Shown here piece by piece: positions 11,679 through 39,260 of a DNA stretch of 64,000 bases. Source of the stretch: Psammoneis japonica (Eukaryota). How positions within the stretch are numbered: the first letter of the stretch is position 1; each line of letters opens with the position of its first letter. The translations under genes were made by a program, and so were the position numbers. The notes under the pieces are model-generated. The model saw nothing but the letters and a program-made list of their open reading frames with translations, did no database searches and was not told the origin of the DNA. The stretch spans positions 186,001 to 250,000 of the forward strand of contig QPGO01000009.1 of NCBI GenBank assembly GCA_008632985.1, given 5' to 3'.

Positions 11679-12045
11679 TGCAGCATGCGACTGTTATATA
11701 CATATCTATGATTATATATTATTTATATGTCAATCGTACCACAGTCGTGGATGCGTACAAAGGACAGAACGATCACACAGAGTTGATCGGATGTCGAGAA
11801 TTGCAAATACGATCGATTGACGATGTTGACATCTTACGTGTCAATAGCAATCGTATCCGGACAATCTGTTGTCACGAATATATTCTCCGAAAGGCCTTTT
11901 GTCTGTAGAAGCAGTACAGAAGCTTTAGGCCATTGAGAACTCGTTCGGAGAAACCAAAAATCACAGAGCAAAATTCAATCTTATAATTTCCACTTTTCGT
12001 ACACTATTCTACTTTCGTTTACACTCGTTCTTCGAGCATAGTGCA
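11679..12045 (+). repeat. 5' LTR of the gypsy element
   Basis: 364/367 identical to 16052-16418 by manual alignment; imperfect terminal inverted repeats TGCAG(C/T)ATGC...GCATAGTGCA. Confidence 0.93.
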
Positions 12046-15000
12046 TTGTGTATACACACCACAGAAGGTAAAAAGCACGGAAAATGAAAATTTTAACTAA
12101 TGTGCCTTTGTAAATTCTTCTACAAACAGGAACGAATCGCACCAGTTCTGCTGGAATCGATTTCCGAGCGGAAGAAGCTCAAGCCGAGCAGTGCCTCAAG
12201 ATGGAACGCTGTTTTTCGTCTACCAGACAAGAGGATTCGCTTTAATACGGTCTATTCCAAGCACCCAAGGATCAAGGGCTCTCAAGCACACCGCATTGTC
12301 AAAAAATCTACACCAAGTCATGGTTGCAGAGAATGCAAGTTCCGAGTCGATCAGGTCCGAGAAATACGTCTACCATGCAAGGAGAGACTATTGGAGAGTT
12401 TTTTGAGACCGAATCGATGATCCTCGAGTCCAAGGAGCAAGAGGGAATCGTTGGAAAGTACCTCAAGCGTCTCATAACTCATGTCCTCCGAGGAAATGCA
12501 CTTCAGAATCAGGGAAATTATTTTCGAGACGACCTGAAGAAACCAGAGCCGCTCAACAGCAAGAAAGCCTCTGACAGACCCAAGAGGTCAACGATGAGAG
12601 TCTATACAACCCTCAGATGGATTCTAAGTCGAATCTAGCGGGAAACCGAGCGCTGATTTATCAGCTATCACTCGCACCGCAAGGATGGCAGCATCAGTCT
12701 ACTGTCCAAAACAATCAACTGTTGCAACTCATCCTTGATGAGCTGATTAAGTTTTGAGTCATCTAAAGGTCGTTCATGACGTCCGTGACGAAAAAACATA
12801 TCAACTCAGGCTCTGACAGCGCAGTTGGTTCCAAAATAAAAAAGGTTCCAAATTTGGTTCCAAAAATGGTCTCCCACATGGTGCCAGAACAATCCAAAGT
12901 GAATGCAAGGTCTTATCTTTGAAAAAAGAATGCCCACATCACGGATTGAAGCTGTTCTAAAAATGAACTAGCAAAAGAGTGCAAGGGTGACTCTGAAAGA
13001 GACCCAAAAATGCGCCGTTCAAATGGCAATCGCACGCGGTCGCGTCGCGATAACGAAAATGCCGCTCGCAAAAAAAGAGATGAACGTCATGATTGATCAG
13101 GCGGTTCAAAAAATGCTCAAAGCGAGTTCCTTGAACAAAGAAAAAGAGCACAAGGGCAAAGAATCAGATTCTGATGCCCTCAGTGAAGAAAAACACCAAT
13201 TTGATCGGATGATCCAGACTGAATCCGAAGAACAATTTTGGTCCATTCACGAATTATGTGCTTTGCTGGACATTAGGAAGCCCCAGAAAAAAGGCAGAAA
13301 TAATTCATGCTAGTCCAGGAGTCATCATTTATATGAGTGCTTCCTTGGGAAAGGAGAGAAAAAAAAAAAGCATCTACGTGTTCCCATCGATGACGGAACA
13401 TCGTCAACCATGATTTTGCGCAAATTCGTGCGAAAGTTGAGAACACAAGAATCCGCCACCAAAAACTTGGGAAACCGAGGGTGAGCTCTTTACGACTGAC
13501 AGCAAACACCGAATTCAGTTCTCACCATGCGAAATTTAAGGCACACTGACATGCAAACAGTGTGTGTTGAAAACACCAAATTTTCTTCAGGTTCAAATGA
13601 TGTGATCATGGGACGCGACTTAATGTCCAGTCCTGCAAGTCACATTGGACTACGCAAATGAAGAAATCTAATGGGAAGAAGCAATTGCCTTATGAAGAAT
13701 GTTCGTGCACTCTTCGATGTCGATGTTTTCAAGCTGAAAACCGATCACATTGAAAAACATGACGCCGTGAATGGAGTCAACAACGGAACCAATGGTCCTC
13801 GACTCACATCATCACGCCATCGATCTTAATCAAGTGACAACTGCGGCGATGCATCCAACCCAAATGAACACAACCAACTCAATCTTCTTCTTAAGAGGTT
13901 GAAATTGTTTTGAAAAGTTCCTCAGACGAATGCATGGGAAGCATCAGTGGATCTCATCGTGGAAAATCTGACGCGATTCCACGACGCGTGAGAACCTTCT
14001 CCTGTCACAGTCTTTGGAGGCGTCCAATCAAAAGGAGTTTGACCTGTCATGAAAGATTGAAGTCTTGAGAATGAAATTGCTCTGAACAAGTCGCTCTGAG
14101 ACTCATTGTCTAAAGAAAACAGGTCGAGTTTGACCGCATCCGACACTCAGAAGCTTGGTGTGAGGTTCACACAGGTGGTGTGTCCTTTGCCCAACATTCA
14201 GGAAATGCCATTGAAGCAAGAACGTTTCATGTGTGTGATCCATTTGATTCAAACATGGAATGCCGCCATGTCAAATAAAAAAAGCACACGTCGTGCTCAC
14301 ACGAAAATCATGCCGTGGGGAGAAAATGAGTGCTGTGGACTTCCAATGAGAATCCACAGAGCCCCAGACATTTTTGTGCAACACTTGAGTGAACTCATGA
14401 CAGGTTTGAAGTTGTCAGAACGACCACATGTGATCGTTTGTGCCTGACAAAAGCAACTTCAAAATGTCACCTGTGCAAGCAACAGCTTAACACGGCATTC
14501 AAACAGTCGCTTAGAAGGTTAACAACAAAAGTCCTTCACTGTTTGACTTGAAAAAAAACTGTCAAGACTTCCATGCGCAATGACATGCAATCGATTGCAA
14601 AGAAAATGGAGGCGATTCAAGCAATCGCAACACGAGAAAAATGCAAAGAACACTGCGACATCTCGTTGCCATGCGTTGCTGTTGTCGAGACATGCAGTCT
14701 CAACGATCTCCTGTGCAATGCTGGCCAAATTCACCTCAACAAAGGTCAAACGGCAAAAGCACAAGTACGGAACGAAAAGTCTCTGAAAATGTGGAGCGTG
14801 TCAAATCAAAAACTGCGTTGTTGTCATGCACGGATTTCAATGTTGTGCGTTGCGACGGAAAAAAGAACTTCTGTCCACAGTGAAAACACTTGTAAAATTC
14901 CGAAATGTGCTGTTTGGCCAACATGTTTGTGTGTGTGCGGATCACAAGACACAATGGACAAAGTCATGCGTTGACGACTTACAATGGAAAAACTTCAGTC

Positions 15001-16051
15001 CCGAATTAAAATGCAGCGAGAGCAAGGCGAACATCGTCGCGATAGACGCGATCAGCCGACTCACTGCAGAAAATTGAATCCTACGACAATGTCCTGCCGT
15101 TAAAACGGGACACAGACATTCCCTCCAAATTGTTGGACGCGACACATCATACGAACACTTTTCGTGGAGGCGAGCGAGATCGAAAAATGCTCATGTCACA
15201 AGGACAAAATCGCCTTTTTAAAGGACGATTTAGGAAAAAACAGCGACAGATTGGTGCACATTATGCGCGTCCACTTCACACTGGCAAAAGACAATCTCAC
15301 AACACCCGCGCGGTTGCATTGCACAATGTGCGAGGCAAGACATTAAAATGGACATCATGTCGACACACGAGATGTGCCAAAGATCTAGACAAAGAAAAGA
15401 AAAATGGACATTCACCCCACTCAGTGCACGAAAGCAGTGCCTTCGGAATGACAAAACAACACCGGCATGTCAGAAAGAAACGTCCAAATGACGATTAAAA
15501 TCCAACTGATGGATGGTTGAAGCACAAAAAAAAAAAAATCCACAATGGAATTCACAACCATCACAGGATTGATTGTCAAGACGAAATGGTCACAATGTCT
15601 TTGACCATCGTTTATTATTACTTATGAAACGTGGTGGTGCAGCAGAGCAACATGGCACATAAAGTAAGCCCGCCAAACTACATGAAATCCACAAGTAAGT
15701 AAGTGAACGCCACGATTAAGAGCGTACATTAAGTACTGGGCACGATGCTATGTACAATCGACATCAGGAGAAATACTTGCTCCAGGACAATTAGTCCTTG
15801 TGTTCATATCAACAAGAACGTCAATGAGAATACTCGACGTAATACCACATATATACATGTTAAGTGAGAAACAAACAATGTCACTCTCAAAAGACATTCG
15901 GAAATTGGAACGGCCCTATATTGCCTATACAAAACAACAACAGTCATTGCTAATGGCACAATACAGTGAAAGTGGAGACATTATTGACACTGTCGATGTC
16001 CGTCGAATAATCCACTTACAAATGACTCTAATGTGCAATTAGGGAGGCGAA

Positions 16052-16418
16052 TGCAGTATGCGACTGTTATATACATATCTATGATTATATATTATTTATA
16101 TGTCAATCGTACCACAGTCGTGGATGCGTACAAAGGACAGAACGATCACACAGAGTTGATCGGATGTCGAGAATTGCAAATACGATCGATTGACGATGTT
16201 GACATCTTACGTGTCAATAGCAATCGTATCCGGACAATCTGTTGTCACGAATATATTCTCCGAAAGGCCTTTTGTCTGTAGAAGCAGTGCAGAAGCTTTA
16301 GGCCATTGAGAACTCGTTCGGAGAAACCAAAAATCACAGAGCAAAATTCAATCTTATAATTTCCACTTTTCGTACACTGTTCTACTTTCGTTTACACTCG
16401 TTCTTCGAGCATAGTGCA
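16052..16418 (+). repeat. 3' LTR of the gypsy element
   Basis: Direct repeat of 11679-12045 at a constant offset of 4373; preceded by the polypurine tract. Confidence 0.93.
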
Positions 16419-16880
16419 GCCCGGTGCTCCCCAAGCACGCCACTTGGAATCTGCTCCGCCTGAGCATGCGCTCTCTCAACTGCCATTTTGTGATCCCCAG
16501 AGAGACCCCTGCTGGAGTGTGGTGGCCAGCAGGAGGATCCCTTCATTTTGTGCTTGGCCACCACACTGCACGTGACCGTGCTTTTCCCTTTTGGCAAGGT
16601 CAAACCTGCGCTCGTTGCTGTTGTTGAGCCCTGGGTGTGCAGCGCCAGCTGCCCAAACCTTGTTTTGCACTGGAAGCGAGGGACCCCCCCCCCCCCCCCC
16701 TTGTTTTTGCAAAGGCAGCAGAGACCTTGTGGCAAGTGAAGAGGAGTCACTGCTTGTGACCTGCGCAATGTGCGGCGCAATGGGTGTGGGTGGAGGTCTT
16801 TCGTCATGATTTCCCAAAGCGCGGCTGCTTCACGCACGCTGGCCAAGGATCGCTCGCGACGCTCGACGCACCGGGATGCA
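16419..16880. mobile_element. TpA-depleted degenerate repeat remnant (continuation of the sequence interrupted by the gypsy), with a poly-C tract
   Basis: No TpA between about 16420 and 16880; C-run at about 16684-16700; joined to about 11100-11678 through the TSD. Confidence 0.55.
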
Positions 16881-17285
16881 CTACGTTGTCGTCCACCAGC
16901 ACCGGCACCGGTACGATCAGGCACGTGCTGTAGGGTCCGTAGGGTCTTACACAAAAGACCCCATGCATGTAGTGTTATCCATGTACGTAGGTTTTGAATT
17001 TATTTCTAACGCAGGATATTGCGCCGCCGCTCAACGGTCGATCGAGTCAGTCATAACGTCGCCGCCTACAGTACAGTGTACCGGTACCGGCAGGTACAAT
17101 GCCCGCCCTACGTACAGTACGCCTGTGGATACAGTACCTACCCTCACGCACACACTCTTGCGATTGCAGGTTCAACAACACGAGTCAGATCTATCTCTGC
17201 GGTACATAGACCAGCTGTCAGTCTTATGTATTGCTCTTTTTTGTTGCATCTTTGATCTTTAGCGCTCAAGTAGCGTCCTTTGACA

Positions 17286-19580
17286 ATGGAGAATGAGAAT
17301 AGCCCCAAAACGTCGTCTCTTTTAGCGAGTCTAACAGGAGAAGCGGACGGATTTCCTCTCGCCGTAGATGACAGTACTCCCGCTACGGACGAACCGGAGG
17401 AAGATCTCTTTGGAGAAGTGCCGATTGATTCTCCCCCCGCAACTCGTAAGCCAGCAACTTCTTCAAGTTTGTTGGAATCCAGTGGACTGTTAAATGATGG
17501 AGGGTCTTCTGGAGCAGCCAACGGTGGCGGCGGTGGCTTGTTTGATGATGTCGACGCTCTGCAAAAGCGGCAGGAAGAAGAGCAAGAGCGACGGCGGCAG
17601 GAAGAACTTCAGCGCAAGCAGCTAGAAGAGCGGGAGAGGCAGCATCTTCAGTTACAGAAGCAGCAAGAAGAACAGCAGCGTCTTCAGCTACAGCAGCAAC
17701 AGGAGCAGGCAGCATACGCTCAGCAGCAGCAGCAGGTACAGCAACCGACGTACCCCCAGCAACAGCAGGACGCTTATGCAGTACAGCAAATGCAGCAGCA
17801 ATCCATTTACGGTCAGGGGCAACAGCAGGGGGGTGTAGTGTATCAGCAGCAACCGCTGCAACAGGGCCATCAGATTCCACCTCAGGTTCAACAGCAGCAT
17901 GCTCCAAACAACATTTCGAATCCTCTGGTATCTCCGACTCAAGGCGGGTTTTACAGGAATCACCAGGAAGTTCCTTTACAGCAACCACTGTCTTCTTCTG
18001 GCATGTATACGAATGGCGGGATGCTCAGCTCCACCACGATGGCACCAACCGCTGAAGGTCGCTACCACCATACAACCGCCATGCCACAGCAAAAGCCTAG
18101 CATTATGGCTGGATTGCATAACACGACAGGTGGTACTGGTTTGGGCCTGCAATCTCCGATTATTACTGCGCCTCCAACCCACGAACCAATGTTTGGTCGT
18201 ATCAAGGTCAGCGATCCTATGCTGCAGAACTCCGAGGGTGGTGGACTCATGTCCATGATGGTTCCTTCGGCGCCTCATTGGACATATCAAGTACAGACGG
18301 AGTTGAAGCAAGATTTGGGCGGACTGTGGATTGTCAGAAGGCGGTTTCGTCACGTCGTGGCTTTGGAAGAGCGATTGAGGCAAGATGTACCTGGAGCTAT
18401 TTTACCACCACGGTGAGTAAGAACCTTCTCTCAGAGGTACGATTCAATTCGAAGTGTTTCTGACTGTATACTCTCTTTCTTTGGCAGACCTGACAAGCAC
18501 GCAACACGTGCTTTGGAAGAAGCCTCCTCGAAACAGTCAGCGGAATTTGCTACTCAACGTGCAGCCGAACTGGAAGTCTACCTTAATGCTTTGGCTCAGC
18601 ACCCCATCGCTGGTAACTCTCCCGTGCTGAGATTGTTCTTGGCGTTGCAGGATGATGTAGGTACAGCATGGCCAGAAGTTTCGTCGAATGCCATTACGAG
18701 ACTTACCAATGTCACAGCGGGGGCGGCTATGAAAATCACTGACGCCACGGCGGACGCTGCTACTCATCTTCCGTGGGCATCATCTTCGAGTGGTGTCATG
18801 GCTGGAGTAGGAGATGTATCGGAAGATTCTGCGGAACTCTTGGCTCTGGCATCCAGCGAGCATGTCCGTATGGGCGCAGTCACGCAGGCCGTTCCCAAAC
18901 TTGAAGGAGCTGTGACGCTAATTCGAGAAGAAGGAGAACGCGCGGGAGGTGTTGGGGTTGAATTGAATAAGCTTTCCAAGGATGTGGAAGGCTTCGATCG
19001 CGACTTGAGTGTGCCACTGGAAATCCTTGGCAATGGAGCTTTGCGCCATGGTCGCCGTACCAAACGATTAGGCCTTGAGTTGAGCGCTGCACTCGACCCT
19101 TTTGTGATGCAATTCAAGCTCTGCAAATATGAAAAGCTGGCCTTTTCCGATCGCCGCAATGCGTTGGCCAGGAAGCAGAAGGAACGTTCGAAGGCGGATG
19201 CTACAGCCCAGCGTCTTGTCGTCGTTCAGCGTGGAGGTGGCGGCCTTGGATCGGATGGAACTGGTGTAGGCAACTTAGAGCGAATGGAAGCCGAGGCGTC
19301 GATCATGGATAAGGTAGCCGTTGATGCGATACAAGAATGCGATGAGATCGGGCAACGTTTGAAGAGCGAAGTAAATCGCGTGTCGTATGAACGCAGGCTG
19401 GCTTTCAAGAAATCGATCAAAATAATTGCAAGCTCTTTTAAGGAGGCTTCGTCCGAACGGAAGGCAGTATGGGAATCTGCCAGGGATGCTTTCTACCAGG
19501 CGTACCCAGATGACTTTCCAGCACAGCAACAGAACGAAGGTAACACCGTAGGTGGCGGCGTTGCTGCCGGAGGCGGATAG
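17286..19580 (+). CDS. Sorting nexin, PX domain plus BAR/Vps5-like C-terminus, Gln-rich N-terminus; intron 18413-18487
   Basis: PX motif VRRRFRHVVALEERL...ILPPRPDK across a GTGAGT..CAG intron; RAAELEVYLNALAQHP; coiled-coil C-terminus. Confidence 0.85.
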
Positions 19581-19604: not shown

Positions 19605-20377
19605 AGAAACCTTTTCTTCCAGCTTTCTGATGTCGCAGTTACTAGAGTCGTCTTTCAAAGCACGGCGAAAACGAGACTAGAGCAGGACTGGACTGCATGC
19701 TACCGGCACCGTGCAGTAGAGGCAGTGCCGGACAACAGTTTCCAACCGCACTCCACTCTCCGTCGCGGGCTGTGCAACGGTTCATCACGCGCCAATGTTG
19801 TCACCACGACAACTGGCATTGCACCCCGCAGCCTCACTGTTGCTGCTGTGAGTGCCCCAAAGCAGAATATGGCAGGACAACTTGAAGGAGAGATGGACAC
19901 AAAATTGGACAATCAGAAATGCCAATTCAAGGTGCAGAATTGGAATTCATGCGGTTCTCAGTGCCTCACCACATTTTTTAGAAAAGAGTGAACAATCAGA
20001 AACCTTTTCTTCCAGCTTTCTGATGTCGCAGTTACTAGAGTCGTCTTTCAAAGCACGACGAAAACGAGACTGGAGCAAGACTGGACTGCATGCTGCCGGC
20101 ACCGTGCAGCAGAGGCGGTGCCGGACAACAGTTTCCAACTGCACTCCACTCTCCATTGCGGGCTGTGCAATGGTTCATCATGTGCCACAACTGGCATTGC
20201 ACCCCGCAGCCTCGCTGTTGCTGCTGTGAGTGCCCCAAAGCAGACTGTGGCAGGACAACTTGAGGGAGAGATGGACACAAAATTGGACAATCAGGAGTGC
20301 CAATGCACGGTGCAGAATTGGAGTTCATGTGGTTCTCAGTGCCTTGCCACATTTTTTAGAAAAGAGTGAACAATCAG
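19605..20377 (+). repeat. Tandem duplication of about 393 bp (19605-19997 and 19998-20377)
   Basis: Both copies run AGAAACCTTTTCTTCCAGC...GAAAAGAGTGAACAATC; copy 2 has a short deletion and more TA/CG transitions. Confidence 0.9.
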
Positions 20378-24714: not shown

Positions 24715-27395
24715 ATGCTCACCATGCAGTGCGCAACTCGTGTCGTTCCACGACTGACGCTTCACAACATGCAACACCGCAGGGCCTGGGCTCCAGATTT
24801 GTTTCGTCAGATCCGTGGCATGATTTGCAAGATCACCCGGCACTCCCGGGTGCTCTCCCCAGACTCCCCAGACTCTTTTTCACACTGGAAAAGGATGCTG
24901 CTTGGAGCCACAGCAGCCCCTGGTGCCGCGGATGCTTTGGAGGCTTGGCTGGCAGAGCAGTTGCCTCGGCAAAGCTGCCGTCAGCCAATGCTCCACCTTT
25001 TGGGGCTGCTGCACGGCACCCTCAAACTTGAGAAACCAAGACATGTGCTGCAGGCCTGGCTCTGTGGGAAAGAGCAAAAAATGCAAAGAGCCGCAACTGA
25101 GAAGGGGGAGAAAAGACTGAGACATGCAGACTTCTTGCTGTTGCTGGAAGCACAGCAGCAAAAACAGCAAAAACAGCAAAAGGCAGCAAAAAAGGCAGTG
25201 TGCCTTGCATCTCAAGCTGCGCCAGCAGCTGGCCAAAGGTTGTTCCTCACATGGGGTCAGACACCAGGTTTGCTGGACAAAAAGCTGTGGCACGAGCAGG
25301 TGAGCCATGAGTGCCCTTCCTGCCACCCACTGAAGAGCTGCCAGATGAAGGGCAAATTTTGCCAGCAATCTGGAGGCTTTCTGGTTTGGTTGAAAAAAGA
25401 TTGGGCCTCACAGGGGTTCTTTGAGAAAAAATTGGCTTGGCTGGCCCGGCCAGTGCTGCAAAGAAAACACCAGCACAAACTTGTCAGCCTTTTCCTGCAC
25501 ACATCACACAACCCAAATGGAGAAACATGAGAACCTCCCTTTTCTAAAAGCTGCGCACATTTTGCTGCCTGTCAGCTTGTTTGCTGCAAGACTTGCTGCT
25601 GTTTTTGTGTCTCACAGCTGAGCCAGAGACTGAGGTGGACCAGCTTCAGCGCTGGCGCTCTTCAAGCTGACCACTCTGGACAAACAGGTGCCCAGTCAAA
25701 CTTTGTTTCTGTCTAAGACTCGTTGATTTGACTCTGCTGTCTGAGTCAGTGAGCACAGCACACTGTCCCATTGGTTGAAAGAGCTCTTCCAAACAAGAGC
25801 ATGGGAGCTTGCACTCTGACACACGCTGCTCCAGCGCCCCCACCTGCACTCATGCTTGGTGCTCATGACCCTCTCTTCCTGCTCTCAACATGAAAAGTTC
25901 AGCTTCGTCACTTGCCATCAACTCTTTTGCTTGCCATGATGTCACAGCTGCTGGCCCCAACCATCAGCTGCGCCAGCAAGGTTCTGGGTTGATCTTGCCC
26001 CCTTTGTCCCACAGCTCTTCTCTTCCCAATGACAAAATGATGCAGGAAAGGAACAAGGCAGTGGCATGAGAGCAAAGGCTTGTTTCAAGCTCTTGTGCTG
26101 AGCCTGACCGGAAAAGGGGCGAGTGCCCCTTGCTTGTCGTTGACTTCCCGCACATCATCGTTTGATTGTTCCCTTGACTCGCAATGCCTGTCATGTGACA
26201 CAAGGTCTTGCTGTTGCACTAGCACGGCAAAATGGTTTCTGAGGAACAGAGCAAAAATCTTTGTCATGGCTGCAGCAAAGCTTTGACGGATGCACGGCTT
26301 TTTTGGCCATCAGTGCAGAGTGCGTGTCACTCTCCAAAGGCGGGCACCAACTCCTCACAGATTGAGTCGGTCCTGTTGCAGATTAACTTTTTTTGTGGAA
26401 TCTCACTTGGTCACACCGCTGCCTTTCATCATCCCAAACTGGAGTTTGCTAAAAGTCTCACTCCCTGGCCCCTGACACAAACCCCAAACCCCAACCCTGA
26501 CCACGCAAAACTGTTTTTTCTAAATGTTGGGATGCAGAAATGGTGAAGCCATGCATGGTGGATTCCTTTTTGTGGCTCAATCTGTGACAGGCACAAATTA
26601 ATCTGTCAGGGGCATTTTTTCTCCAAAGGCACCCTCTCAATCCTTTCCTTCTTGGCAACTCTTTCATGTGCGGTCATTTGATGCTTTGGCATTTGGACCA
26701 ACAGCGCTGTTTTTGGTGGGAGCATGGACACTCATTTTGGCAGCTCTTCATCAGCCGAAGTTGCTGCGATCCCAAGCCCACGTGCTTGGCTGTGCACCCA
26801 CCCACACCTCGTCATCATTGATGACTTGGTTTGACACGTTGCAGATGAAAACCTTTTCCCAACAAAGACAGAGAGCTGTCAAAAAGCAAAGTGCTGGACT
26901 CCCTGGCTTGTGAGGTTGGCAGTCGACCACAGCACATGGAGAAAGTCAAAGAGCAGGTTGCGCCAAACCCGCGGCAAAAGCACCCAGCCAACATGTGCCG
27001 TTGCGCGCTGTTCTGCATCTGAGCATGCAAAGGAGATTGCTTCTCTTGTTTTGCTGTCTGCTGTCTTGCATTGTCAGTGCTGCTGGGCACTGTGATGCCA
27101 GTTTCTCGTTTGACAGCCCCAGTGCCTGCTCATGCTGGTGCTTCGGCGGCGTGCATGCTGGCTGTCGCCTCATTTTTTGCAACGCTCTTGGCTGCTCTGC
27201 AAAAACAGCTTGTCATCAGCATCGTCGGAAGGACAACATTGAACATCACCATCATCTTGATGCATCGTCCATCGTCCATGGTGTGTGACCACCTGGATGA
27301 GCGGTGGCAGTGCGGCGTGTTGCGGCACTCATCACACAAGGCTCATTGTCAACACAGAAAGACAGACAGGCAGACAAGACAGACAGCTCGCGCGC
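24715..27395. mobile_element. TpA-depleted degenerate element with convergent ORF remnants, between the GlyRS and LHC genes
   Basis: Sharp-edged domain with almost no TpA outside TTA/TAA; Tyr-free ORF 24715-25530 (+) and broken minus-strand ORFs. Confidence 0.5.
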
Positions 27396-27557
27396 ATCTA
27401 TCTAATCTCAGATGTCGGATGGATTCCTAATTCCTTCTCTCCGCATGCGTGGCGCGACAGGTTGAACTCAAATCCTCGCGATCCTTTTGTGATTGCCAGC
27501 GGCTGTTGTCGTGCGCGAGTTTGTTGCATCCCCGAGGACCTAAGAACTGTTTTGACC

Positions 27558-30142: not shown

Positions 30143-32642
30143 ATGGCTTCCCAAGTTTCCGACGTTGAGGAACTCCGCAACAAGATGAAGCAGGCCGACG
30201 ATCTTGAGGCCCAGTTGGAAAGCCTCCCGAAAAAGTTTTCCGAAGAGCGCTCTCCTCGCCTTCGTATGCAGCTCTGCGAGATTCTAAGCGATGTTATGCT
30301 TCAGGACCCCTACTTTGCGTTACGCAAGAACTGTGCTGATCGTTTGTGGAGGAGTTGCTTTTATGGACGTATCACTCAACTGAGAAACCGCATCAATCGA
30401 GAGAAGCGCAAAAAGGGACCCAACTTAAAGAATCTAGAGTCAAGTCTCAACGTATTCTTGCAGGAAGCTATAGTGCTCTATCGATGGATCGTGAACAAGT
30501 ACGAAACAAAGTTACTGCCTCGGCTTCCGGACAGTCAGCTTTCCCAAGAGTCGGAGACTTCTGCTATTGCACCTACAGAAGACGTCACTGGTGTGATTCC
30601 CATACTGTATCGTCTATTGATTCATTTGGGTGACTTAAATCGATACGCCGGTTCTTTTAACGACGCTTCAACCTCTTACACCGAGGCTTCCAAACTCGCA
30701 CCGGGTAAGGGGAACCCTTACAATCAATTGGCAGTGGTAGCGCAAATGAAGGACCCCAGTTCGCCCCTGTCGTGCGTGTCACTTTATTGGTATACACGAT
30801 CTCTTTTAGCGGTTGACGGGCCGTTCGAAACGTCAAAGTCTAATCTGGCTCTGTTGTTTGACCACAACCAAAAGTGGCTAGAAAAACACGCAGAGGACCC
30901 CGTCATTCAAGCCACCGGCACTAACAGAAAGGCTCTGCAACAGCAAGCACGAGCTCGAAAGTCTGCCTTGAGTCAGCGCTTCTTGTCGCGATTTGTGAAT
31001 CTCCACTACGATTTCTTTCAAGCCGCAGACAGGAAGGATATAAGTAAAGCTGATCTGACGCAAAGTCCAAGATGTATTGGAGAGGTTCTCGTCCCTCTTG
31101 GACGCCACTGCCTTTGGCGATGCTCTTCTGATGAAAATGGTTGCCATTAACGCATTTTCCACCCATAATCTAAATAGCGGAAGCGACTGTTTTGAGCAAG
31201 CCATGGCCTTGCTTCTCAGCTTTGGTGCTTCCATGCTGCAGCGCGTGGAAAAGACTCTTCAAAAGGTTGTACCGGCAACGGAACAGCCGTCGCCTGCAGC
31301 CATGCCGTCAGTACGGCTTGTGGTCCCTCTTGTGCTCATTTGTGACTACCTTTACACATTCCACGACCGGCACTTGGTTTTTGAGAATCATCCCCACGAT
31401 GATCTTTGGCGGGACGCTAGTCAGTCGTTCTGGTGTGGTGTTGCCTCGGTTGCTAACTTGTTGAGCACCGTTCGTGATCAGCTCAACCCTAGCTCATTGC
31501 AGCATCTCCAGATCAAGGAGTTCGAGAGCTTTGTTGGTTACGTACCGTTTCAGCCCTTTGTATGCAAAGGCAAGAAGCACGAGGCGTTTGTGTCTGCCGA
31601 TGAGGCCGTCCGAGCTTTGGAACTCTCGCCGCCCACCACCCAGGAATCTTCAGCAAGCGTTTCGCCAGGGAATGACGAAGAGAATAGGCTCAAGTTGGTG
31701 CGGTTCCTTCAAGTCGTAGACCGCTTTGTCCGTCGGTGGGAAAAGGGGGGAAATGGTTTGCTTGCTCGTGTCAAGGACGGAGTGTACAAGGCGACAGCAC
31801 ATCCGCATGACACGGGTATGGGCACTTCGGAGGTCACGGGGCAAGAGACAAACTTTGACAACGAAGAAGACATGGATACGACAGTAACAGTGGAGGCTTC
31901 TGCTCAACAAGACGGTAACGACGAAGACGATGGCGGTGATGTTGTGATGTACAAGCCGACAGAAGGTGCTGGCCCCGCGTTGTTGGTCCCTGGCCCTCTA
32001 TTGACAAAAGAAGTTAAGGCTGCTCCTGTGGTGTCCAAGGCAGAGACCCCTGCTACTGACCCTTGGAAGACGACCGTTAACGAGAGCGTCGGGGTGGACA
32101 TGTCCTCATTGCTTGCCGCTTCTCCTGCTCCTCCTCCACCTCCTGTCGAAGCCCATGAAGCGCCACATCCAGCAGCGTCGAAGCAGCCACTACCTGTGAG
32201 CAACCCAGTGGAAGTCGCTGCTATCCCGCCGCCTCCTGGTCTGCTCCCGCCGCCAGGTTTTGGAGGCACCGTAGCTTCTTCGGGAGCAGCCTCTCTTTCA
32301 TCAAGCACTGCTGTCCCTACAGCACCTCCTCCGCCAGGCTTTTCGCAGCAGTCTGTCCCAACTCAGCAGAATATTCATACACACGGATTGGATCTGTCCA
32401 ACTTAAGTACGGCGAATCCATTCGCATCCGAGTATCCGCAGCCATCGCTCGAGAGTCTCCGATTACCAGGCTCTGGCATTTTCGGTTCAGGCTACGGTGA
32501 ATCAAAGCCGTCATCGAATTTTCTTGATGTTAACAGAGAGAAAGAAGCTTCGCTTGTTGAAAGTTCCTTTCTGACAAACCTGTGGGCTGAGGAGAGCCAA
32601 AAGACAGACCCTCCGTATAGCGAGAACCCTTTCTTGACATAG
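30143..32642 (+). CDS. Est1/SMG5-7-like NMD/telomerase-binding protein (14-3-3-like TPR domain); one frameshift at about 31060
   Basis: LWRSCFY, IHLGDLNRY, PGKGNPYNQLAVVA and YWYTRSL are characteristic of the EST1 DNA/RNA-binding domain; continues in ORF 31077-32642. Confidence 0.85.
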
Positions 32643-33140
32643 CGCCCCTTGGCGTTGACGATGGTATGAATTTTCGCGATGCCAATAACGTGATGATGCT
32701 GTCATTGTTGGACTCAGTCAGTGGCCATGAACTTTCGAGATCTCAGTGGGCGCACACGACATGCGACGACGGCTACAGACAATACACCTACTCGTTGAGA
32801 GCTAAACTCACTGAATAACGTGATAAAATATTCTTTACGCTCGAATCATCAGACACACTAGAGAGAGAGAGGGTACCGGTATGATGCTACGGTCTTGGAA
32901 GTTGGCAAGTGAAAAGCGCTCCACGCTCCACTCGCTCGCGCGGTGGGTCATTTTGTTCTCGTTCGGTGTCAGGTGTCACCCGATCGAAGAGCGAGCGAGA
33001 GGTGAACGCCGCTCGGTTCAGTTTTTGTGTTGAGTTGTTGAATGGCGAATGGAAGGACCCGAGAACAACGTTAGTTGATTGTTCTTCACAGTACTGTATT
33101 TAGAAGTATATTAATACATTGAGTCCTGTTCGTGCTGAAA

Positions 33141-33554
33141 ATGGTGAACGCTTCTGAGACTAGTCATTTGGATGCCAAGTTCGGGAACGATGAAGTCAAT
33201 GATGCTGTTGGAGTCGGTGATAATTTGCGTGTCGCGTTCGGAAAGAACTCCTTGTCGGGAGTAAATAGGAGCTTCAAAAAGCTTACCGATACGATCTCAA
33301 ACGCCATGGATAATGTTATGATCGGGCTTCAAGAAGAAGAGGTAGAGCGGGTACCTTCAACGAAAAGTCAAGAGGAAAGACAGAGCGATGACGTGAAGCA
33401 CCAAGTCGACGACAAAATAGAAAAAGCTGTGATCAGCTCGGATGAATTTCGTCACCTTCAGCAAGAGATGCGAGCATCAGGTATGACGACTGGGGTGGGA
33501 ACCAAAGCGTTTTTAGTCAGTATGGCGGAAGAGAGACGTGGTGGCGGCGCTTAA
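33141..33554 (+). CDS. Hypothetical protein
   Basis: ATG-initiated ORF of about 137 aa with normal composition; no recognised domain. Confidence 0.5.
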   Translation: MVNASETSHLDAKFGNDEVNDAVGVGDNLRVAFGKNSLSGVNRSFKKLTDTISNAMDNVMIGLQEEEVERVPSTKSQEERQSDDVKHQVDDKIEKAVISSDEFRHLQQEMRASGMTTGVGTKAFLVSMAEERRGGGA

Positions 33555-34233
33555 AGTTGTCGACCCGAGCCAAGTACTCTGTGAACCTACCTTTCAGAAA
33601 TGCACATGAAGAAAATGCCTCGTTCATTACTCATTACTGAGGGGTTGCTCTGATAAAAACATAGTGATGCGAGGGAACTCTGGAATCGCTAAATTTCATA
33701 ATACATTTATTGTTCATTTCTACAATGATTCTTCTGTGCACATTTGCTCCCTCTGCAATAGGAATGCATAGAGCCCTACCGGTTCAACAACCATATTCAT
33801 ATTCAACAATATCGGGGTGTACGCCAGCTTTGCAGGTAAGAAATCGATTGGGCATGGATGCACACATTTCTTAAGGTCTCATTTTTGCCTTCTCGCACCA
33901 TAAAAATGGAAAGCGGCATCAGCAACTCCTCTGCATGAATTGAATATGCTTGCTCATAGTGTTGTTACAAGCTACAACCTTGACCTTGAGCGTGTAGTAA
34001 TTGACTTGGGGGAAGGGGGGTGGAATAGAGAAATGACGAGTTCTCTCCTAAAGAACAGGGCCTGAATCAGAACACAGATTTCATGAAACGTCAACTTGCA
34101 ATTGTTTACCGTAGTTTATTTCTCACTGGGATTGTTAAGCAGATAGGTTATCATAGTATTGCGAGATAAAAGTAGGGTCCTATGCTCCTCATTGACGAAC
34201 GGCAGGGACGGAGAATAGATTAGCCCTACGGTA

Positions 34234-34815
34234 CCAGTAAAAAACCGAATTGAGTCCTTATGACTGAACTGAGTCCTTATCCGACCCATATGTTGAATCG
34301 ATCGATAAAATGATGAAAAAACCAAGTAATCAAACTGTTTTTGTTGCTGTGATAATCTTCAATTGCTGCTGCTTCTGACCATGTGTTTGGATTTGGGTGT
34401 TTCAGTTTTCTCCGGCTGCCCGTTGCCGTCGAACATGGTCGTTTGTATTTTTTGAAGCGGAAACGAGATTCAACAATTCTCATGTAATTTTTTTATGAAG
34501 ACACGTACATCATATATCCTCACTGCTCCGTGCTGCTTGCTGATTTGGAGATATGTTGAATTTCTTCTGGTACTTGACACGTAGAAATGTACAGGGGGGG
34601 CCGAATTGAGTCATTACGCGAAAAAGGTGCAACTTTTGCAGCTAGATTAAGCTAATCCCAAGCCCATTTCACAACCGACTATCATCAAAGAACTCGTTAA
34701 GAGATGATGAAAAGCTAGGAAATGCGAAGAAATGGTCAGTTTTAGGCCAATGATGGGCAAAAAATGGCCATTCAACATATGGCAAAAATAAGGACTCAAT
34801 TCGGTTTTTTACTGG
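34234..34815. mobile_element. MITE (Tc1/mariner-type), 582 bp, perfect 28-bp TIRs, TA target-site duplication
   Basis: TA|CCAGTAAAAAACCGAATTGAGTCCTTAT at 34232-34261 and its exact reverse complement at 34788-34817; internal partial TIR copies at about 34266 and 34601. Confidence 0.9.
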
Positions 34816-35185
34816 TATCGCATGATGCATGATGAGGACCAAGGACGATCTTGTGCGTTTGTCTGTTCAGTGTGAGCGGTCATCCTTCAGCCGCGCCTCC
34901 TCTTTCTTTTTGGGGTCTGTTTGCTTGCCTCCTCACTTTTTGCACATCAAACACAAAAAGAACTGAACGATGTGAGGTAAAATGCGTCAGAGGTCAACCT
35001 GCAAAGTACCAAGATGCGTTATGTCACAAATATTGCCCGCGCCAGATCGTGTCGAACTCTACTTATAATGGGTGCAATAAATGCCTTACATCATGCTCGG
35101 GCTGGAAACATCATCGTGAAGATCTACTTGTACGATCACTCAAATCCTCCCGGAGTATTTTTCATAAAACGTCGGCGAGCAAAAA

Positions 35186-36071
35186 ATGATGATTCGTTTC
35201 ACTGTTGGTTTCCTTTTGGTAGCTCTTGCTTCTACTGGCGGGATGCCGACTCCCATCTTCGAGTCCACCGACGGTATGACACCGAGCGATGAAGAAGTAA
35301 AGTACAGATGCAACTTTGAAGGATTGTGGACGCAGAAGCGCCATCCCAAAGAGTTTCCTGTTAATAATTTCCCACACTGGAGTCAACCGGTTGTTGCTAC
35401 CCACAGCAACAAGTATACCCTATGGAATGTAGGGAAGTTCGCGTCGCCTGGAGTTGAATTGGTGGCAGAGGTACGTACTGTATAATGCTGGGATTCTGCT
35501 GACGATTCTGGGACAACGAAACCAAAGCTGACGACGTTTTTCTGCTCAGACCGGAATTACATCGACGTTGCGAAAGGAGTTGGCGAAAGACAAGGGTGTC
35601 TTGGCGTATCAAGGGCTCCGAAACACAAAAGGCGACATATGGGAGGCCAGCGATCTGGTGAGCATGGATTCAACTCACAACCGCATCTCCGCCATTTCAA
35701 TGATTGCACCCTCTCCTGATTGGTTCTCCGGCTTCCACGACGTTACTCCTGTCAACAAGACTACTGGTATGTGGTATTACGAGTTCAAGATGACAACGCT
35801 TCCGTATGATGCTGGAACTGAAGAAGGTGAAACGTACTCTCTCTTCAATCCCGACGAACGCCCGCAGCGTAAGATTCAGAGGATTAAACCATCCAACGCT
35901 CCCAACGGTTTGTTTGTCACAATGAAAGGGGGTAAACCCCGTATCTTAAAGGTGGCGAAATGGACTTGCGTTCAGGATGGTGGACGTGAAGACTGCAATC
36001 AGTACAAACCAGACCGCCGTCTTATGAATCAATGCAGGCGCCGCAACAAAGCAAGAGACAAAAATCCCTAA
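35186..36071 (+). CDS. Secreted Spondin_N-domain protein; intron 35471-35549
   Basis: Signal peptide; YRCNFEGLWT..HP..FP...HWS.PVVATHS, ASPGVELVAE|TG, SMIAPSPDWFSG, PYDAGTEEGETY. Confidence 0.88.
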
Positions 36072-36326
36072 TGCACCGCATCGACTATAGAGAGAGCCGC
36101 CTCTTCTCTTTCAATCCTGGAGCTTCGACAACGGGATAGTCTGAAGTACGGCGAAGTAATAATACCGTAGCTGTGAACAATGAACGTATCCTTTGTCACC
36201 TTGCGTCTTGTTTCAGTGCCACACGGTCTCGACACAACGAAACAGAGACTTTCCGTCCTTGTAGTTTGCAAGGCGTGCTAAACTTGCTGAAAACCTCTTT
36301 CGCTGAACGCTCAACTAAGAGAGCAA

Positions 36327-37184
36327 TCACATACGAGGCAGCCCGTCCTCGTCAACACCACTGATCGCAAGCTCATTCAAAGCGTCCAGATGGTCGTTGA
36401 TTTCGTCTGCAAGATATTCCAGTTCCTCCTGAGACAAACCTAGTCCAACAGATGTGACTCCTTTCTTTCCATACAAGCGCAATTCACACTGAGGCACGTC
36501 ATTCACAATGGATGCAACCTCCATTTGCGCACCTTCGAGATCCTGAGTGGGACCATCCCTTTTCTTGATTACGGCGCCACCATACGTTGATTCCAAGGAC
36601 CAAGCATACTCTCCAATCGTCAGTGTCGACGCTACAAATGGATCCACCACCGCGGTCTTGGCCACCATGCCTCCTGCAGCCCAGAAAGGCAGCATAAATA
36701 GGAGAGGCGCAGCACCAGCGGCAAACGTTGCAGGGACAATGGCTGAGAACCACGCCGCGCTGAAAGCACCACTGAAAACAGCGTTCGCAGTGAGGCCTGT
36801 GCGTGGTAGCTCAACCACAAGAGTGCCTGCATCGGTACGTGATATTATAGATTGACTCCCCAAAGGAGGCTGTGACAGCGGCGCCGCTTCCGACGAGGAT
36901 TTGCTACGTAGTTTTTGTCTTGCTTCTTGCGCAGCCGCGATTGCTGCTTGTGCTGTCGCCAGCTTACGGGCATAATCTTCTTCTGGATCCTCATCATCCG
37001 GGAGTGGATCAGGGTAAAGATCATTCTGCTTTGTTTGATTCAGAGAAACATGTGAAATACGAAAGACAGGTCGTTGCAGTGCACGTTTTGTTGTCAGGAG
37101 GAACGCATGCTGATGGTGTGTCACAAACGCTGAAGCCAATCGAGATGTGACGAAAACCGCAACCAGAAATGGATGAAGAAGCAT
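36327..37184 (-). CDS. Putative plastid-targeted membrane protein (hypothetical)
   Basis: MLLHPFLVAVFVTSRLASAFV bipartite targeting sequence; two hydrophobic helices (FSAAWFSAIV, FMLPFWAAG). Confidence 0.75.
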   Translation of the reverse strand: MLLHPFLVAVFVTSRLASAFVTHHQHAFLLTTKRALQRPVFRISHVSLNQTKQNDLYPDPLPDDEDPEEDYARKLATAQAAIAAAQEARQKLRSKSSSEAAPLSQPPLGSQSIISRTDAGTLVVELPRTGLTANAVFSGAFSAAWFSAIVPATFAAGAAPLLFMLPFWAAGGMVAKTAVVDPFVASTLTIGEYAWSLESTYGGAVIKKRDGPTQDLEGAQMEVASIVNDVPQCELRLYGKKGVTSVGLGLSQEELEYLADEINDHLDALNELAISGVDEDGLPRM

Positions 37185-37229
37185 GTTTATTAGATTGTTG
37201 CAAGCTCGGGTTAGCGTGTGGTGCTTTAA

Positions 37230-39260
37230 CTTTTCAAGGCGACATTCAAGACGTTCAGAGTGCTTGTCATGCATGGACGATGCGTGCATGGACGATGGAC
37301 GACGTCTCCGGCCTTCTGGCCACCTGCCAGGCCGTGCGCGCATTTGGGATTTTGCCCGCCTTCGGCTGGTGGCACTGGGTGCGGCATTGTGCGGCATGCA
37401 AACGAGAGATGCAGAGAACACAGAAGATGCATGATTCTTCTTCTGTCAAGCGTTCACCTGACTCGCCACAGCATGCATGCACTGGGATTAACAAACTTTT
37501 TCAGTGCAAATTCTGTGTTCACCACATTCTTTGGACAGCCGCTGTCCCTCCAGAGATGATGGCGCTGGGCGTCATTTTGCCCTGCCCAGCAGAGATTGGG
37601 CAATGGCAACGAACAACCCCTCTGGCCTCTTTGGAGAAGGAGAAGGGTGTGAAACCCTGGGCTGAGAAAAACACTTGGGGCATGAATTTGTCTGAGAGCT
37701 TTGGAGAAAAAGGTGTGGGGTGCTTCTTTTGGCTGCGGCAGAGGAGTGGCCAAGAGCTCAGCGGCTCTTGCTGCGCTGTCAAAAAAGATGATGGTGAGCA
37801 GAGAGAGCTGTTGCTGCCGCTGCAAACTTGTGCACACTGAGCAGCTGTGACACCAGAGCACACTTTTCTCTGTGCGGCCTCTGGCGGCTCTCATCTTCTG
37901 CAGCCACCGGCGTGCCGGCACACATGCGCGCGCCACACCTGCCAGCTGCTTTGGCAGCAGCTGCACAAGATGAACAATCTGTTGATGCGCGCATGGCATC
38001 ACAAAGAGCCTTGATGAAAAACAAGCCATTGTCTCCCAGGGGGGGGGGGGGGGGGGGGGGCACATTGCAAAATGATGTCTGCCACATGGCTGCATGGCTG
38101 CTGACAAGCGGGCAAGTTTGGTGCCATGTTGTGTGAAAAAGCAGGGCTTGGAACACAGAGCAACATGAGCGGTGCTCCGGCGCTCATGTTGTTCAGAAAG
38201 CAGCAGGCAGTGCCAGCAGGAGAAAAGCACCATGAGTCCCACATGTGGTGTGCAAGTGCTGAACTTGCCCTGGCACTCAGTGCACAAATCAAAGCACAGC
38301 TCAAACTGGTGTTTGCAAGCAGCACACGCCGCACAATCTCAGCCAGCATTGCACGCAGCACTGTGCTGCCACTCACTCCTGCAGAAACCCATGGGGCATC
38401 GAGGGGGTGTGGCATTTCGACGCACATTTTCAGCATGCACACCAAAGAGCAGCGCTGCTGCAAGACAGGTGTGGAACAAAAAAGAGCTGTTGTTGTGCCT
38501 GTGCTGGCCTGTGAAAAAGTTTTCACAGCACAAGGCTGGGCTGGCTTCCCCCTTTGGTGGGGGGATCTTGCCAGAAGCCAGCGCAGCAGCCTCCCTTCCT
38601 CTTGTGCAGCCACCTTGGGCTGCTGCTTGTCTCTTGCACAAGCACCACCACCACCAGCAGCAGCAGCAGCATTTTGCACTTTTCAAGCCATTTCTTCTTC
38701 TTTGCCTGGAAAAGCAAGCTTGTGAGTTTTGTGCTTGCTTGCGCTCTTGTCTTTTTGCCTCTGATGGAAATCACAAGCCAAGGGGGGTTGCACAAAAAAA
38801 GTTTCTTTTGTTTGCCTCTGGCCCACTTTGCATCCAAAAAAGAGCCAGCTGGGTCAAGGGGCAAGTGTTGTTCCAAGAGAAAATGGTTGACAAATCAAAA
38901 ACCTGTGCTGGGTGCAGGCTGGCGTGGCATGTGTGGCCAATGAAGCAACTTTTTCTTTGGTTGACAGGCAGCTGGGAGACTGGAGCAAGCCAGAGATGCA
39001 GCAAACAGAGCAAGTGCCACCCTGCTCTTCTTTGTTTGTTGGCCCTGCAGCAGCACTCAACAGCTCCAAGCAGAAGCACACAGTTGGGTCATTGTGGGGC
39101 TTGTGTGTGAGCAGCAGACCCCTTCACATGCAAGTGCTCCACAGTGTCAACCCCTCCTCCCCCCCCTTTCCACCACCATCGCCACCACCACAGACAAAAA
39201 GAGCCGCTGTGCATGCAACAGCAAATGCTGGGTTGCCTGCCCCACCCCCAAGCAAGCAAA
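37230..39260. mobile_element. TpA-depleted degenerate repeat with a poly-G tract
   Basis: Almost no TpA for about 2 kb; G-run at 38039-38060; peptide HQQIVH shared with the 51635-52990 domain. Confidence 0.5.

Follow-up and report, generated by a model that had tools for sequence, protein, structure and literature searches.

Three TpA-context differences between the LTRs of a gypsy-type retrotransposon in TpA-purged DNA of a diatom-like genome

INTRODUCTION

To date, a single report, a 2026 preprint (Mettrop et al., bioRxiv 10.64898/2026.01.13.699255), describes targeted A:T-to-G:C hypermutation at TpA; it concerns one rhizarian alga, the chlorarachniophyte Bigelowiella natans. According to the main text of that preprint, the hypermutation is restricted to TpA and falls on integrated giant-virus and virophage DNA. 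In mutation-accumulation lines, 230 of the 231 mutations in two hypermutable regions were A>G or T>C, every such GC-biased mutation lay on TpA, and the de novo rate was about 1000-fold the background (10.64898/2026.01.13.699255). The agent proposed for B. natans is a DNA deaminase that would convert adenine to hypoxanthine in a TpA context (10.64898/2026.01.13.699255). In the openly accessible literature that we searched, TpA-only hypermutation is described nowhere else, and not for diatoms.

Fungal RIP wrecks mobile DNA in place by dinucleotide-specific transitions and leaves tracts of odd composition; its C-to-T changes fall mainly on CpA, so that TpA becomes enriched. ADAR acts on double-stranded RNA, which it subjects to A-to-I hyperediting. 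As the Discussion of the B. natans preprint describes it, ADAR changes A to G with a preference for U or T preceding the edited A (10.64898/2026.01.13.699255). APOBEC editing of LTR retrotransposons is described as leaving strand-biased G-to-A clusters that stem from cDNA (Knisbacher and Levanon 2016, PMC4866542).

We analyzed a 64,000-nucleotide stretch of Psammoneis japonica DNA (the window), which groups with diatoms, following an earlier note that had read a pair of LTRs within it as a clock for a TpA-specific process. Should this footprint recur in a diatom-like genome, the process would not be peculiar to one species, and diatoms would supply transformable model species for finding the enzyme and learning its targeting.

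RESULTS AND DISCUSSION

TpA- and CpG-purged tracts

The window holds six tracts, with edges a few hundred bp wide, in which TpA is nearly absent (rho 0.04) and CpG is scarce (rho 0.29). Over the 18.2 kb of these tracts, YpR steps are kept (23.0 per 100 bp versus 23.9 outside) and their makeup shifts, the share of TA going from 16.8% outside to 1.1% in the tracts, that of CG from 24.1% to 8.3%, and that of TG plus CA from 59% to 90.6%. The element described below lies between two pieces of one tract.

2340..11678, no strand: left TA- and CG-purged tract, the insertion target; 30 TA and 118 CG in 9.3 kb
16419..16882, no strand: what is left of that tract on the right side; 0 TA, CG normal (25 in 464 bp)

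Non-coding DNA with ordinary TA (rho_TA about 0.6) is present in the window at 33300-35500 and 60500-62700. The TA-loss process is therefore regional, and we rejected a genome-wide neutral equilibrium because of this unconverted DNA. Strand coordination between neighboring TG and CA steps is no higher in the tracts (0.517) than outside (0.530), so nothing points to long bursts on one strand. Loss of methylated CpG through 5-methylcytosine deamination accounts for the CG-to-TG/CA half of the tract composition, but it is incapable of removing TpA, and it trails TpA loss at the tract edges and in the element. Pfam returned nothing relevant in 12 tract open reading frames or in the six read-through frames of 5638-10650, and tblastn with gypsy homologues gave no match at an E value of ≤0.001 outside the element in the 64-kb window. 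TA-free, CG-free tracts are probably the unrecognizable remains of old mobile DNA.

Stronger internal clocks in the window

Two duplications in the window are stronger clocks than the LTR pair.

5377..5637, plus strand: old direct repeat copy 1; partner at 10828-11099, 5451 bp away
10828..11099, plus strand: old direct repeat copy 2; 260 aligned columns with 193 identical, 53 transitions, and 14 transversions
19605..20377, plus strand: tandem duplicate, copies 19605-19997 and 19998-20377, spanning a tract edge

The old repeats share 53 YpR steps, of which 13 are CA in one repeat but TG in its partner, where 2.2 were expected (P = 6e-7). This excess indicates that, once duplicated, the two copies resolved ancestral TA or CG steps independently of one another. 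In the tandem duplicate, changes in the inner copy compared with the other direction ran 4:0 for TA loss and 7:2 for CG loss. The old repeat pair may represent the LTRs of an element that has been converted throughout, and no pol relic was found between the copies by Pfam six-frame read-through or by tblastn with gypsy homologues.

Base modifications can yield systematic miscalls on certain platforms, and if modified TA or CG bases had been misread in sequencing or polishing, the tracts and some of the LTR differences would be unreal. Contigs of one public run (X1; depth, 46 to 71) agree with 10500-11298, 11341-11678, and 16684-17500 without a single other letter or gap; the best-matching run may be the assembly's own source. 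Nor does a miscall of one modified base predict CA in one old repeat and TG at the matching site of its partner. Of all the alternatives that we weighed, such an artifact is the one to which we give the least credence.

The retrotransposon

To judge by its sequence, the element is a degenerate copy of a Ty3/gypsy-type LTR retrotransposon, young and coding-dead.

11675..11678 (left) and 16419-16422 (right), no strand: target-site duplication GCCC, both sides of the element
11679..12045, plus strand: 5' LTR, 367 bp, TG...CA ends; C (TA-less) at 11684, TA alleles at 11916 and 12006
Directly 3' of the 5' LTR: sequence beginning TTGTGTATACACACC..., the expected place of the primer-binding site
12246..15488, plus strand: gag-pol relic, one long frame with 25 in-frame stops (17 TGA, 4 TAG, 4 TAA)
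12401..15600, no strand: TA-poor, CG-normal core; 52 TA versus ~192 expected from the element's own ends
Near 13386, plus strand: aspartic protease, match to gypsy-type polyproteins
14079-14414, plus strand: reverse transcriptase (RT), match to gypsy-type polyproteins
14844-15074, plus strand: RNase H, match to gypsy-type polyproteins
16041..16051, plus strand: purine run AGGGAGGCGAA directly 5' of the 3' LTR, a putative polypurine tract by its position
16052..16418, plus strand: 3' LTR, 367 bp; T (TA allele) at 16057, G (TA-less) at 16289 and 16379

The LTRs have the termini TGCAG...GTGCA and are flanked by GCCC on both sides, as expected of a Ty3/gypsy-type LTR element with its target-site duplication. 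Protease, RT, and RNase H follow in that order in a single frame, as judged from the matches to gypsy-type polyproteins; integrase was not found in the element. HMMER gave 19 matches with just 22 to 44% identity, and Pfam on the relic alone gave just RT_RNaseH at an E value of 9e-4, below threshold. A word-based protein search with the RT fragment gave no match at near lengths, the exact LTR word had no match in viral_contigs or metagenome_contigs, and blastn, also run in purine/pyrimidine space, found no further copy of the element within the 64-kb window.

Differences between the LTRs

The earlier note had described two 367-bp LTRs with three differences, each of TA versus CA/TG and none at CpG, and our alignment agrees: 11679-12045 and 16052-16418 (367 and 367 bases) align with 0 gaps and exactly the 3 named differences.

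11684 C / 16057 T: LTR difference 1, CAGCATG / CAGTATG
11916 A / 16289 G: LTR difference 2, AGTACAG / AGTGCAG
12006 A / 16379 G: LTR difference 3, ACTATTC / ACTGTTC

All three are transitions, and all three set TA in one LTR against CA or TG in the other. Read as TA loss, they comprise 1 T>C and 2 A>G changes. The two LTRs contain 29 and 28 TA and 21 and 21 CG, with 0 CpG differences. Three ordinary transitions might have fallen in a TA/CA/TG context by chance. Since 109 of the 367 possible LTR transitions make or break a TA, the undirected probability for three of three is 0.026, which is not vanishingly small; the signal consists of three sites only, and the pattern was chosen after it had been seen. 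When TA loss is required (polarized), P = 0.0044, and Fisher's test of 3/120 TA positions against 0/614 other positions in the LTRs gives P = 0.0043. We consider chance very unlikely, given the overwhelming TpA-specific process seen independently in the window and the 13:1 excess of TA loss in this copy over its family described below.

The claim that TpA loss outpaces CpG decay is borne out by the element interior (TA rho, 0.07 to 0.4; CG near 1) and by 16413-16882 (0 TA, CG normal) but not by the LTRs alone, where 3/60 TA versus 0/42 CpG is not significant (P = 0.27). As the note also had it, the TA-less alleles are on the flank-facing side, all three lying in the outer part of the LTRs (5, 129, and 39 bases inside the outer edge), and the flank is TA-free, with none in 16419-16881 and 0 TA in 11094-11678 versus 12 TA over the opening 60 bases of the 5' LTR. 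Encroachment of the process from outside, which the note had drawn from this geometry, was not established. The probabilities for the three sites, from tests all picked post hoc, are 0.044 (mean distance), 0.059 (outer 130 bp versus the rest), and 0.12 (outer halves); a TA-maximal reconstruction places 12 TA sites in the initial 60 bases of the 5' LTR, which adjoin the TA-free flank, and 11 of these sites are intact; and depletion peaks in mid-element.

Comparison with family copies

We compared this copy with its family using k-mer contigs of four public runs (X1 to X4), all taken from a single sample within one study; these runs may themselves be the assembly's source. The family has hundreds of copies, with a summed contig depth of ~31000 to 38000 over the LTRs versus ~36 to 96 over the flank bins (one repeat-inflated bin, 376). 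Among the 40 of 645 comparison rows listed, the family majority differs from this copy in 33. TA versus TG/CA makes up 14 of these 33 listed rows, 13 with TA in the family and TG/CA here and 1 the reverse (sign test, P = 0.0018), and the CpG rows among those listed split 5:5. The 13 family-polarized TA losses comprise 8 CA and 5 TG. The reverse row is at 11982, with TA in this copy and CA in 80% of the family depth.

At the LTR sites, contigs were placed on whichever LTR fits better, so allele frequencies there are unreadable. In run X3, an A unitig (depth, 9.26) and a G unitig (depth, 7.66) at 11916/16289 are similar in depth; a multi-copy contig of X4 has G at 16289; and an X2 contig from another copy, covering 11768-12094, has G at both 11916 and 12006. 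Other family copies thus carry both alleles at two of the three LTR sites (11684 is absent from the rows listed). Polarization by other copies points to TA loss here across the listed rows and, as far as these contigs can be read, is not clean for the three LTR sites themselves.

If the direction were reversed, CA/TG would have become TA in the opposite LTR, by C-to-T change at CpA as in fungal RIP. This would fit the finding that G is about as common as A at 11916/16289 in the family, as well as the TA of this copy at 11982. However, old sequence in the window ends TA-less, not TA-rich (rho 0.04), the family comparison runs 13:1 toward TA loss, and the direction measured in B. natans is TA to TG/CA, and we regard a reversal as highly improbable. 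RIP itself enriches TpA, whereas here TpA is erased.

Because both alleles are present in family copies, gene conversion or change on cDNA during reverse transcription could be the source of the LTR differences, with the same TpA process as their ultimate origin. The family is of great size, other copies have the TA-less alleles at 16289 and 16379 (X2 for both; X3 and X4 at 16289), and the two changes in the 3' LTR are 90 bp apart and so coverable by one conversion tract. On the other hand, the one contig observed to have both G alleles has 7 more differences between these sites that are absent from this 3' LTR, a site-specific process predicts recurrent hits on the same TA sites anyway, and TA conversion in place is evident from both the tandem duplicate and the old repeat pair. 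We think such an import unlikely.

A regional TpA-specific process

What the window shows is the TpA signature itself, confined to regions, acting on both strands, and running ahead of CpG loss. The TpA-specific process that the earlier note had proposed is upheld by the tract composition, the old repeat pair, the 13:1 family comparison, and the B. natans precedent. On the sequence evidence, we judge it reasonably probable that the element is a young Ty3/gypsy-type copy in a pre-purged tract and that its three LTR changes came from the same regional process. The retrotransposon would have inserted into diatom-like DNA already stripped of nearly all TpA and most CpG. Its LTRs would have been identical at insertion and would have acquired the three changes afterwards as regional TpA-specific A:T-to-G:C transitions, TA to TG or, on the other strand, TA to CA, through the process that produced the surrounding tract. 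We infer that the three changes likely arose at this locus after integration; the note's in situ claim keeps that strength, tempered by the two sites at which family copies carry both alleles. The enzyme would most likely be a deaminase converting adenine to hypoxanthine in the TpA context of DNA, as proposed for B. natans, and the CpG loss in the tracts would be separate, through deamination of methylated cytosine.

What the preprint's main text reports for B. natans and what is found in the window have in common TA to TG or CA changes on either strand, confinement to particular regions with neighbors spared, and long-term TpA depletion with gain of CpA plus TpG in kilobase-scale clusters. 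Among the TpA-poor genes of B. natans, reverse-transcriptase and transposase domains are overrepresented, a likeness to the retrotransposon here. A mobile origin of the targets here would fit the retrotransposon itself; the tracts lack a recognizable domain, and the old repeat pair is a hint of what was once an LTR element. The systems differ in lineage, one being a chlorarachniophyte and the other grouping with diatoms, and in the type of evidence, mutation-accumulation lines in B. natans and sequence alone for the window. The footprint here is far more complete, with a rho_TA of 0.04 over 18 kb versus 0.45 in the B. natans NCLDV region given in the preprint, and it is visible on a young, high-copy retrotransposon. 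CpG is also lost in the tracts here, while the main text of the preprint does not mention CpG, LTRs, or boundaries for B. natans.

As described for APOBEC, the damage here would be of a deaminase kind, lies in an LTR element, and is detected by copy-to-copy alignment. In contrast to APOBEC-type cDNA editing, the changes here are A:T to G:C, in a TpA context and on both strands, and they also occur in DNA not recognizable as a retroelement; none of the 3 LTR differences calls for G-to-A change on a single strand. The change of A to G and the preference for U/T before A recall ADAR. However, hyperedited RNA copied into DNA would mark one strand, and both are marked here, with 8 CA plus 5 TG among the family-polarized losses and with TG (249) and CA (305) both raised in the core at 12401..15600.

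We hold in even balance a broader proposal, that diatoms (stramenopiles) have a regional genome-defense mutator of silenced DNA that erases self-complementary YpR steps, TpA first and CpG later, leaving TG/CA, and that still acts on an abundant gypsy family. If this is true together with the chlorarachniophyte case, adenine-directed DNA hypermutation would be a widespread and overlooked defense of SAR-group eukaryotes. Its rate and spread could in that case be read from built-in clocks, namely LTR pairs within elements, tandem duplicates, and old repeat pairs. In genomes with such tracts, LTR divergence is an unsafe basis for dating LTR elements.

The element interior

TA depletion is strongest in the middle of the element, far beyond that of the LTRs, and private TA losses number at least 12/64 in the interior versus 3/60 in the LTRs (P = 0.026). 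Had this heavy loss in the interior taken place in situ, the LTRs would be expected to have been hit far more than 3/60. We suggest that the heavier mid-element loss at least partly predates the insertion and was carried along by a non-autonomous lineage, in which the LTRs and adjacent cis-acting sequences would have stayed intact because they are required for transposition. Codon polarization from the HMMER relatives was ruled out because their identity makes them too distant. At the 7 columns with a consensus Tyr, the element has Tyr in 0 and Cys in 2.

Three LTR differences, all at TpA

A gap-free alignment of the two 367-bp LTRs of the retrotransposon at 11679..16418 (11679-12045 versus 16052-16418) gave exactly three differences, at the sites identified in the earlier note and at no others.

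11684 C / 16057 T, LTR difference 1, transition, TA versus CA or TG
11916 A / 16289 G, LTR difference 2, transition, TA versus CA or TG
12006 A / 16379 G, LTR difference 3, transition, TA versus CA or TG

None of 21 CpGs differed between the LTRs. Because 109 of the 367 transitions possible in the LTR create or destroy a TA, three of three has a P value of 0.026, or 0.0044 when loss of TA is required. A comparison of TA with CpG within the LTRs alone was not significant (3/60 TA versus 0/42 CpG; P = 0.27). The three-site finding is real yet weak taken alone, and we consider it credible because the same window holds far stronger evidence for the same process.

Regional loss of TpA and CpG

Six tracts of the window, 18.2 kb in total, have a TpA observed/expected ratio (rho) of 0.04 and a CpG rho of 0.29, with TG (1.69) and CA (1.64) raised. 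The density of pyrimidine-purine steps is unchanged (23.0 per 100 bp in tracts versus 23.9), with the TA share of these steps falling from 16.8% to 1.1%, the CG share falling from 24.1% to 8.3%, and the TG-plus-CA share rising from 59% to 90.6%. Transitions at TA and CG would yield such a make-up. Noncoding stretches at 33300-35500 and 60500-62700 keep ordinary TA, so the loss is regional, and a genome-wide equilibrium is ruled out as its cause. The ordinary genes of the window include PXA/PX sorting nexin, EST1, SpoU, Tdp1, and EIPR1.

The element sits within the largest tract. The 585 bp upstream of it contain no TA versus 12 in the LTR's first 60 bp, which places conversion of the flank ahead of the insertion. 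The TA-free zone extends further outward at tract edges than the CG-poor zone does: 16413-16882 (0 TA, normal CG), 37228-37489, and 26600-27399 are TA-free with normal or near-normal CpG (3.9 to 6.9 per 100 bp), versus 0 to 0.9 per 100 bp in tract cores. At the edges, TpA loss comes first and CpG loss after. The earlier proposal that the process is faster than CpG decay holds on these edges and on the element core, where TA rho is 0.07 to 0.4 and CG rho is about 1; the LTRs alone give it no such support.

Several local features accompany the tracts. At 2210-2346, TCCGGGTTACTTTGG recurs four times (once with a mismatch) at intervals of 36 to 43 bp, precisely where the 9-kb TA-free tract begins on the left; the motif is absent from the rest of the window (chance expectation, 0.05), and the copies could be a candidate boundary or binding-site cluster. 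At its left end (2340-4740), the large tract is unlike the remainder: it is pyrimidine rich on the plus strand (T minus A skew of about +0.3), has low complexity with CTG/CTC-like words, and shows a TG:CA ratio of about 3 to 1. At least 14 consecutive C (16685-16700) lie in the TA-free flank 270 bp right of the insertion.

Two duplications as clocks

Two duplications are better clocks than the LTR pair in this same window.

5377-5637 and 10828-11099, old direct repeat pair inside the tract, 5451 bp apart, 74% identical
19605-19997 and 19998-20377, tandem duplicate straddling a tract edge, 24 differences

The old repeats align with a score of 95, whereas none of 200 shuffles scored above 15, and their 260 columns comprise 193 identities, 53 transitions, and 14 transversions. 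One copy has CA and the other TG at 13 of the 53 pyrimidine-purine steps that they share, versus 2.2 expected under independent transitions (P = 6 × 10−7); these paired steps make up half of the transitions. Steps of this sort mark an ancestral TA or CG that each copy resolved on its own once duplicated. The repeats are possible LTRs of a fully converted retrotransposon; we found no pol relic between them.

In the tandem duplicate, TA in the outer copy corresponds to TG or CA in the inner copy at four sites, with none in reverse, and CG does so at seven sites, with two in reverse (TA and CG losses pooled, P = 0.022). The inner copy also carries four A-to-G changes off TpA (19886, 19917, 19919, and 19945), each preceded by A or G, raising the possibility that the process also acts outside TpA.

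A coding-dead member of a large family

The element has TG...CA LTR termini and a 4-bp target duplication, GCCC.

12246-15488, gag-pol relic in one frame, 25 in-frame stops
near 13386, aspartic protease, by matches to gypsy-type polyproteins
14079-14414, RT, by matches to gypsy-type polyproteins
14844-15074, RNase H, by matches to gypsy-type polyproteins
directly 5' of the 3' LTR, purine run AGGGAGGCGAA

A HMMER search with the gag-pol read-through matched 19 proteins at an E value of 0.001 or better. The eight of these scanned with Pfam were all gypsy-type polyproteins with RVT_1 and RT_RNaseH, two of the eight having aspartic protease domains and two integrase domains. The in-frame stops, the lack of any visible integrase in the relic, and the below-threshold Pfam matches of the relic itself indicate that this copy is coding-dead despite LTRs that are 99.2% identical.

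We mapped 4,536 contigs onto 10500-17500, from four public runs (X1 to X4) that all derive from one sample of one study and may be the source of the assembly itself. Their similarity ranged from 99% or more down to <90%. Summed contig depth was about 36 to 96 in most flank bins (376 in one, 10968-11201), 5,900 to 14,300 over the interior, and 31,000 to 38,000 over the LTRs, so the family has hundreds of copies.

Among the 40 of 645 difference rows listed, the family majority (at least 73% of depth) was unlike the element copy in 33. In 13 of these, the family has TA where the element copy has CA (8) or TG (5), versus one listed row in the reverse direction (11982; sign test, P = 0.0018); CpG rows were balanced (5 versus 5), and 9 were of other kinds. 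The process stands as TpA specific, as the earlier note had it. Twelve of the 13 losses are interior and one is at 11976, where both LTRs share the TA-less state, so this loss predates the insertion.

Allele frequencies at the three LTR sites are unreadable because contigs were placed on the better-fitting LTR, and 11684 has no row among the 40 listed. TA alleles occur in multicopy contigs (T at 16057 in X3 and X4; A at 11916 and 12006 in X1 and X3), which is consistent with, without being decisive for, TA being ancestral at all three sites. The TA-less G at 16289 also occurs, in X3 (depth of 7.66 versus 9.26 for A) and X4, and one X2 contig from another copy has G at both 11916/16289 and 12006/16379. 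Gene conversion from other copies is a possible, though less probable, source of the three differences. Change in situ after integration, as previously claimed, is the simplest reading and a reasonably probable one.

TpA loss is heaviest in the element interior

The middle of the element has 52 TA versus about 192 expected, the heaviest loss in the element, and lineage-private TA loss is greater in the interior (at least 12/64) than in the LTRs (3/60; P = 0.026). For two intervals, the positions at which family contigs differ from the element copy are fewer than the missing TAs, and therefore the interior loss is partly inherited. The element may belong to a nonautonomous lineage in which hits would build up in the dispensable interior between rounds of transposition, while the need to transpose would keep the LTRs and the adjoining 350 to 450 bp intact. 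The further suggestion that conversion encroaches from outside was not established: the geometry of the sites gave a P value of 0.044, 0.059, or 0.12 depending on a post hoc cut, 11 of 12 TA sites beside the 5' flank are intact in a TA-maximal reconstruction, and the heaviest loss is in the middle.

Relation to known mutators

The closest known case is Bigelowiella natans, for which a 2026 preprint reports that, in mutation-accumulation lines, 230 of 231 mutations in an integrated giant virus and a virophage were A>G or T>C, all of these on TpA and at about 1000 times the background rate, and proposes an ADAT2-like deaminase (bioRxiv 10.64898/2026.01.13.699255). CpG, LTRs, and boundaries go unmentioned in its main text. 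The best named relatives of two window proteins are diatoms, and a 13-row Tdp1 tree, a single gene with rows picked for having names, puts the window Tdp1 and eight diatoms together in one clade (100/99), separate from a chlorarachniophyte, a pelagophyte, and an alveolate. The window is not from B. natans.

Because both strands are hit, editing of sense RNA alone is a poor explanation, and the direction and context of the changes exclude RIP and APOBEC signatures. Our literature search found no description of such a process beyond the B. natans preprint. The TpA mutator here is probably of a kind known from one preprint, in this case in a second eukaryotic lineage and acting on an LTR retrotransposon.

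The intergenic segment 41400-42850, which lacks any covering ORF of 510 nt or more, shows the opposite bias. TpA is in excess there (rho 1.6), with 38 to 50 TA per 500 bp and a G+C content of about 50%, and 90 of 140 TA fall within CTAC/GTAG, GTAC, and CTAG words.
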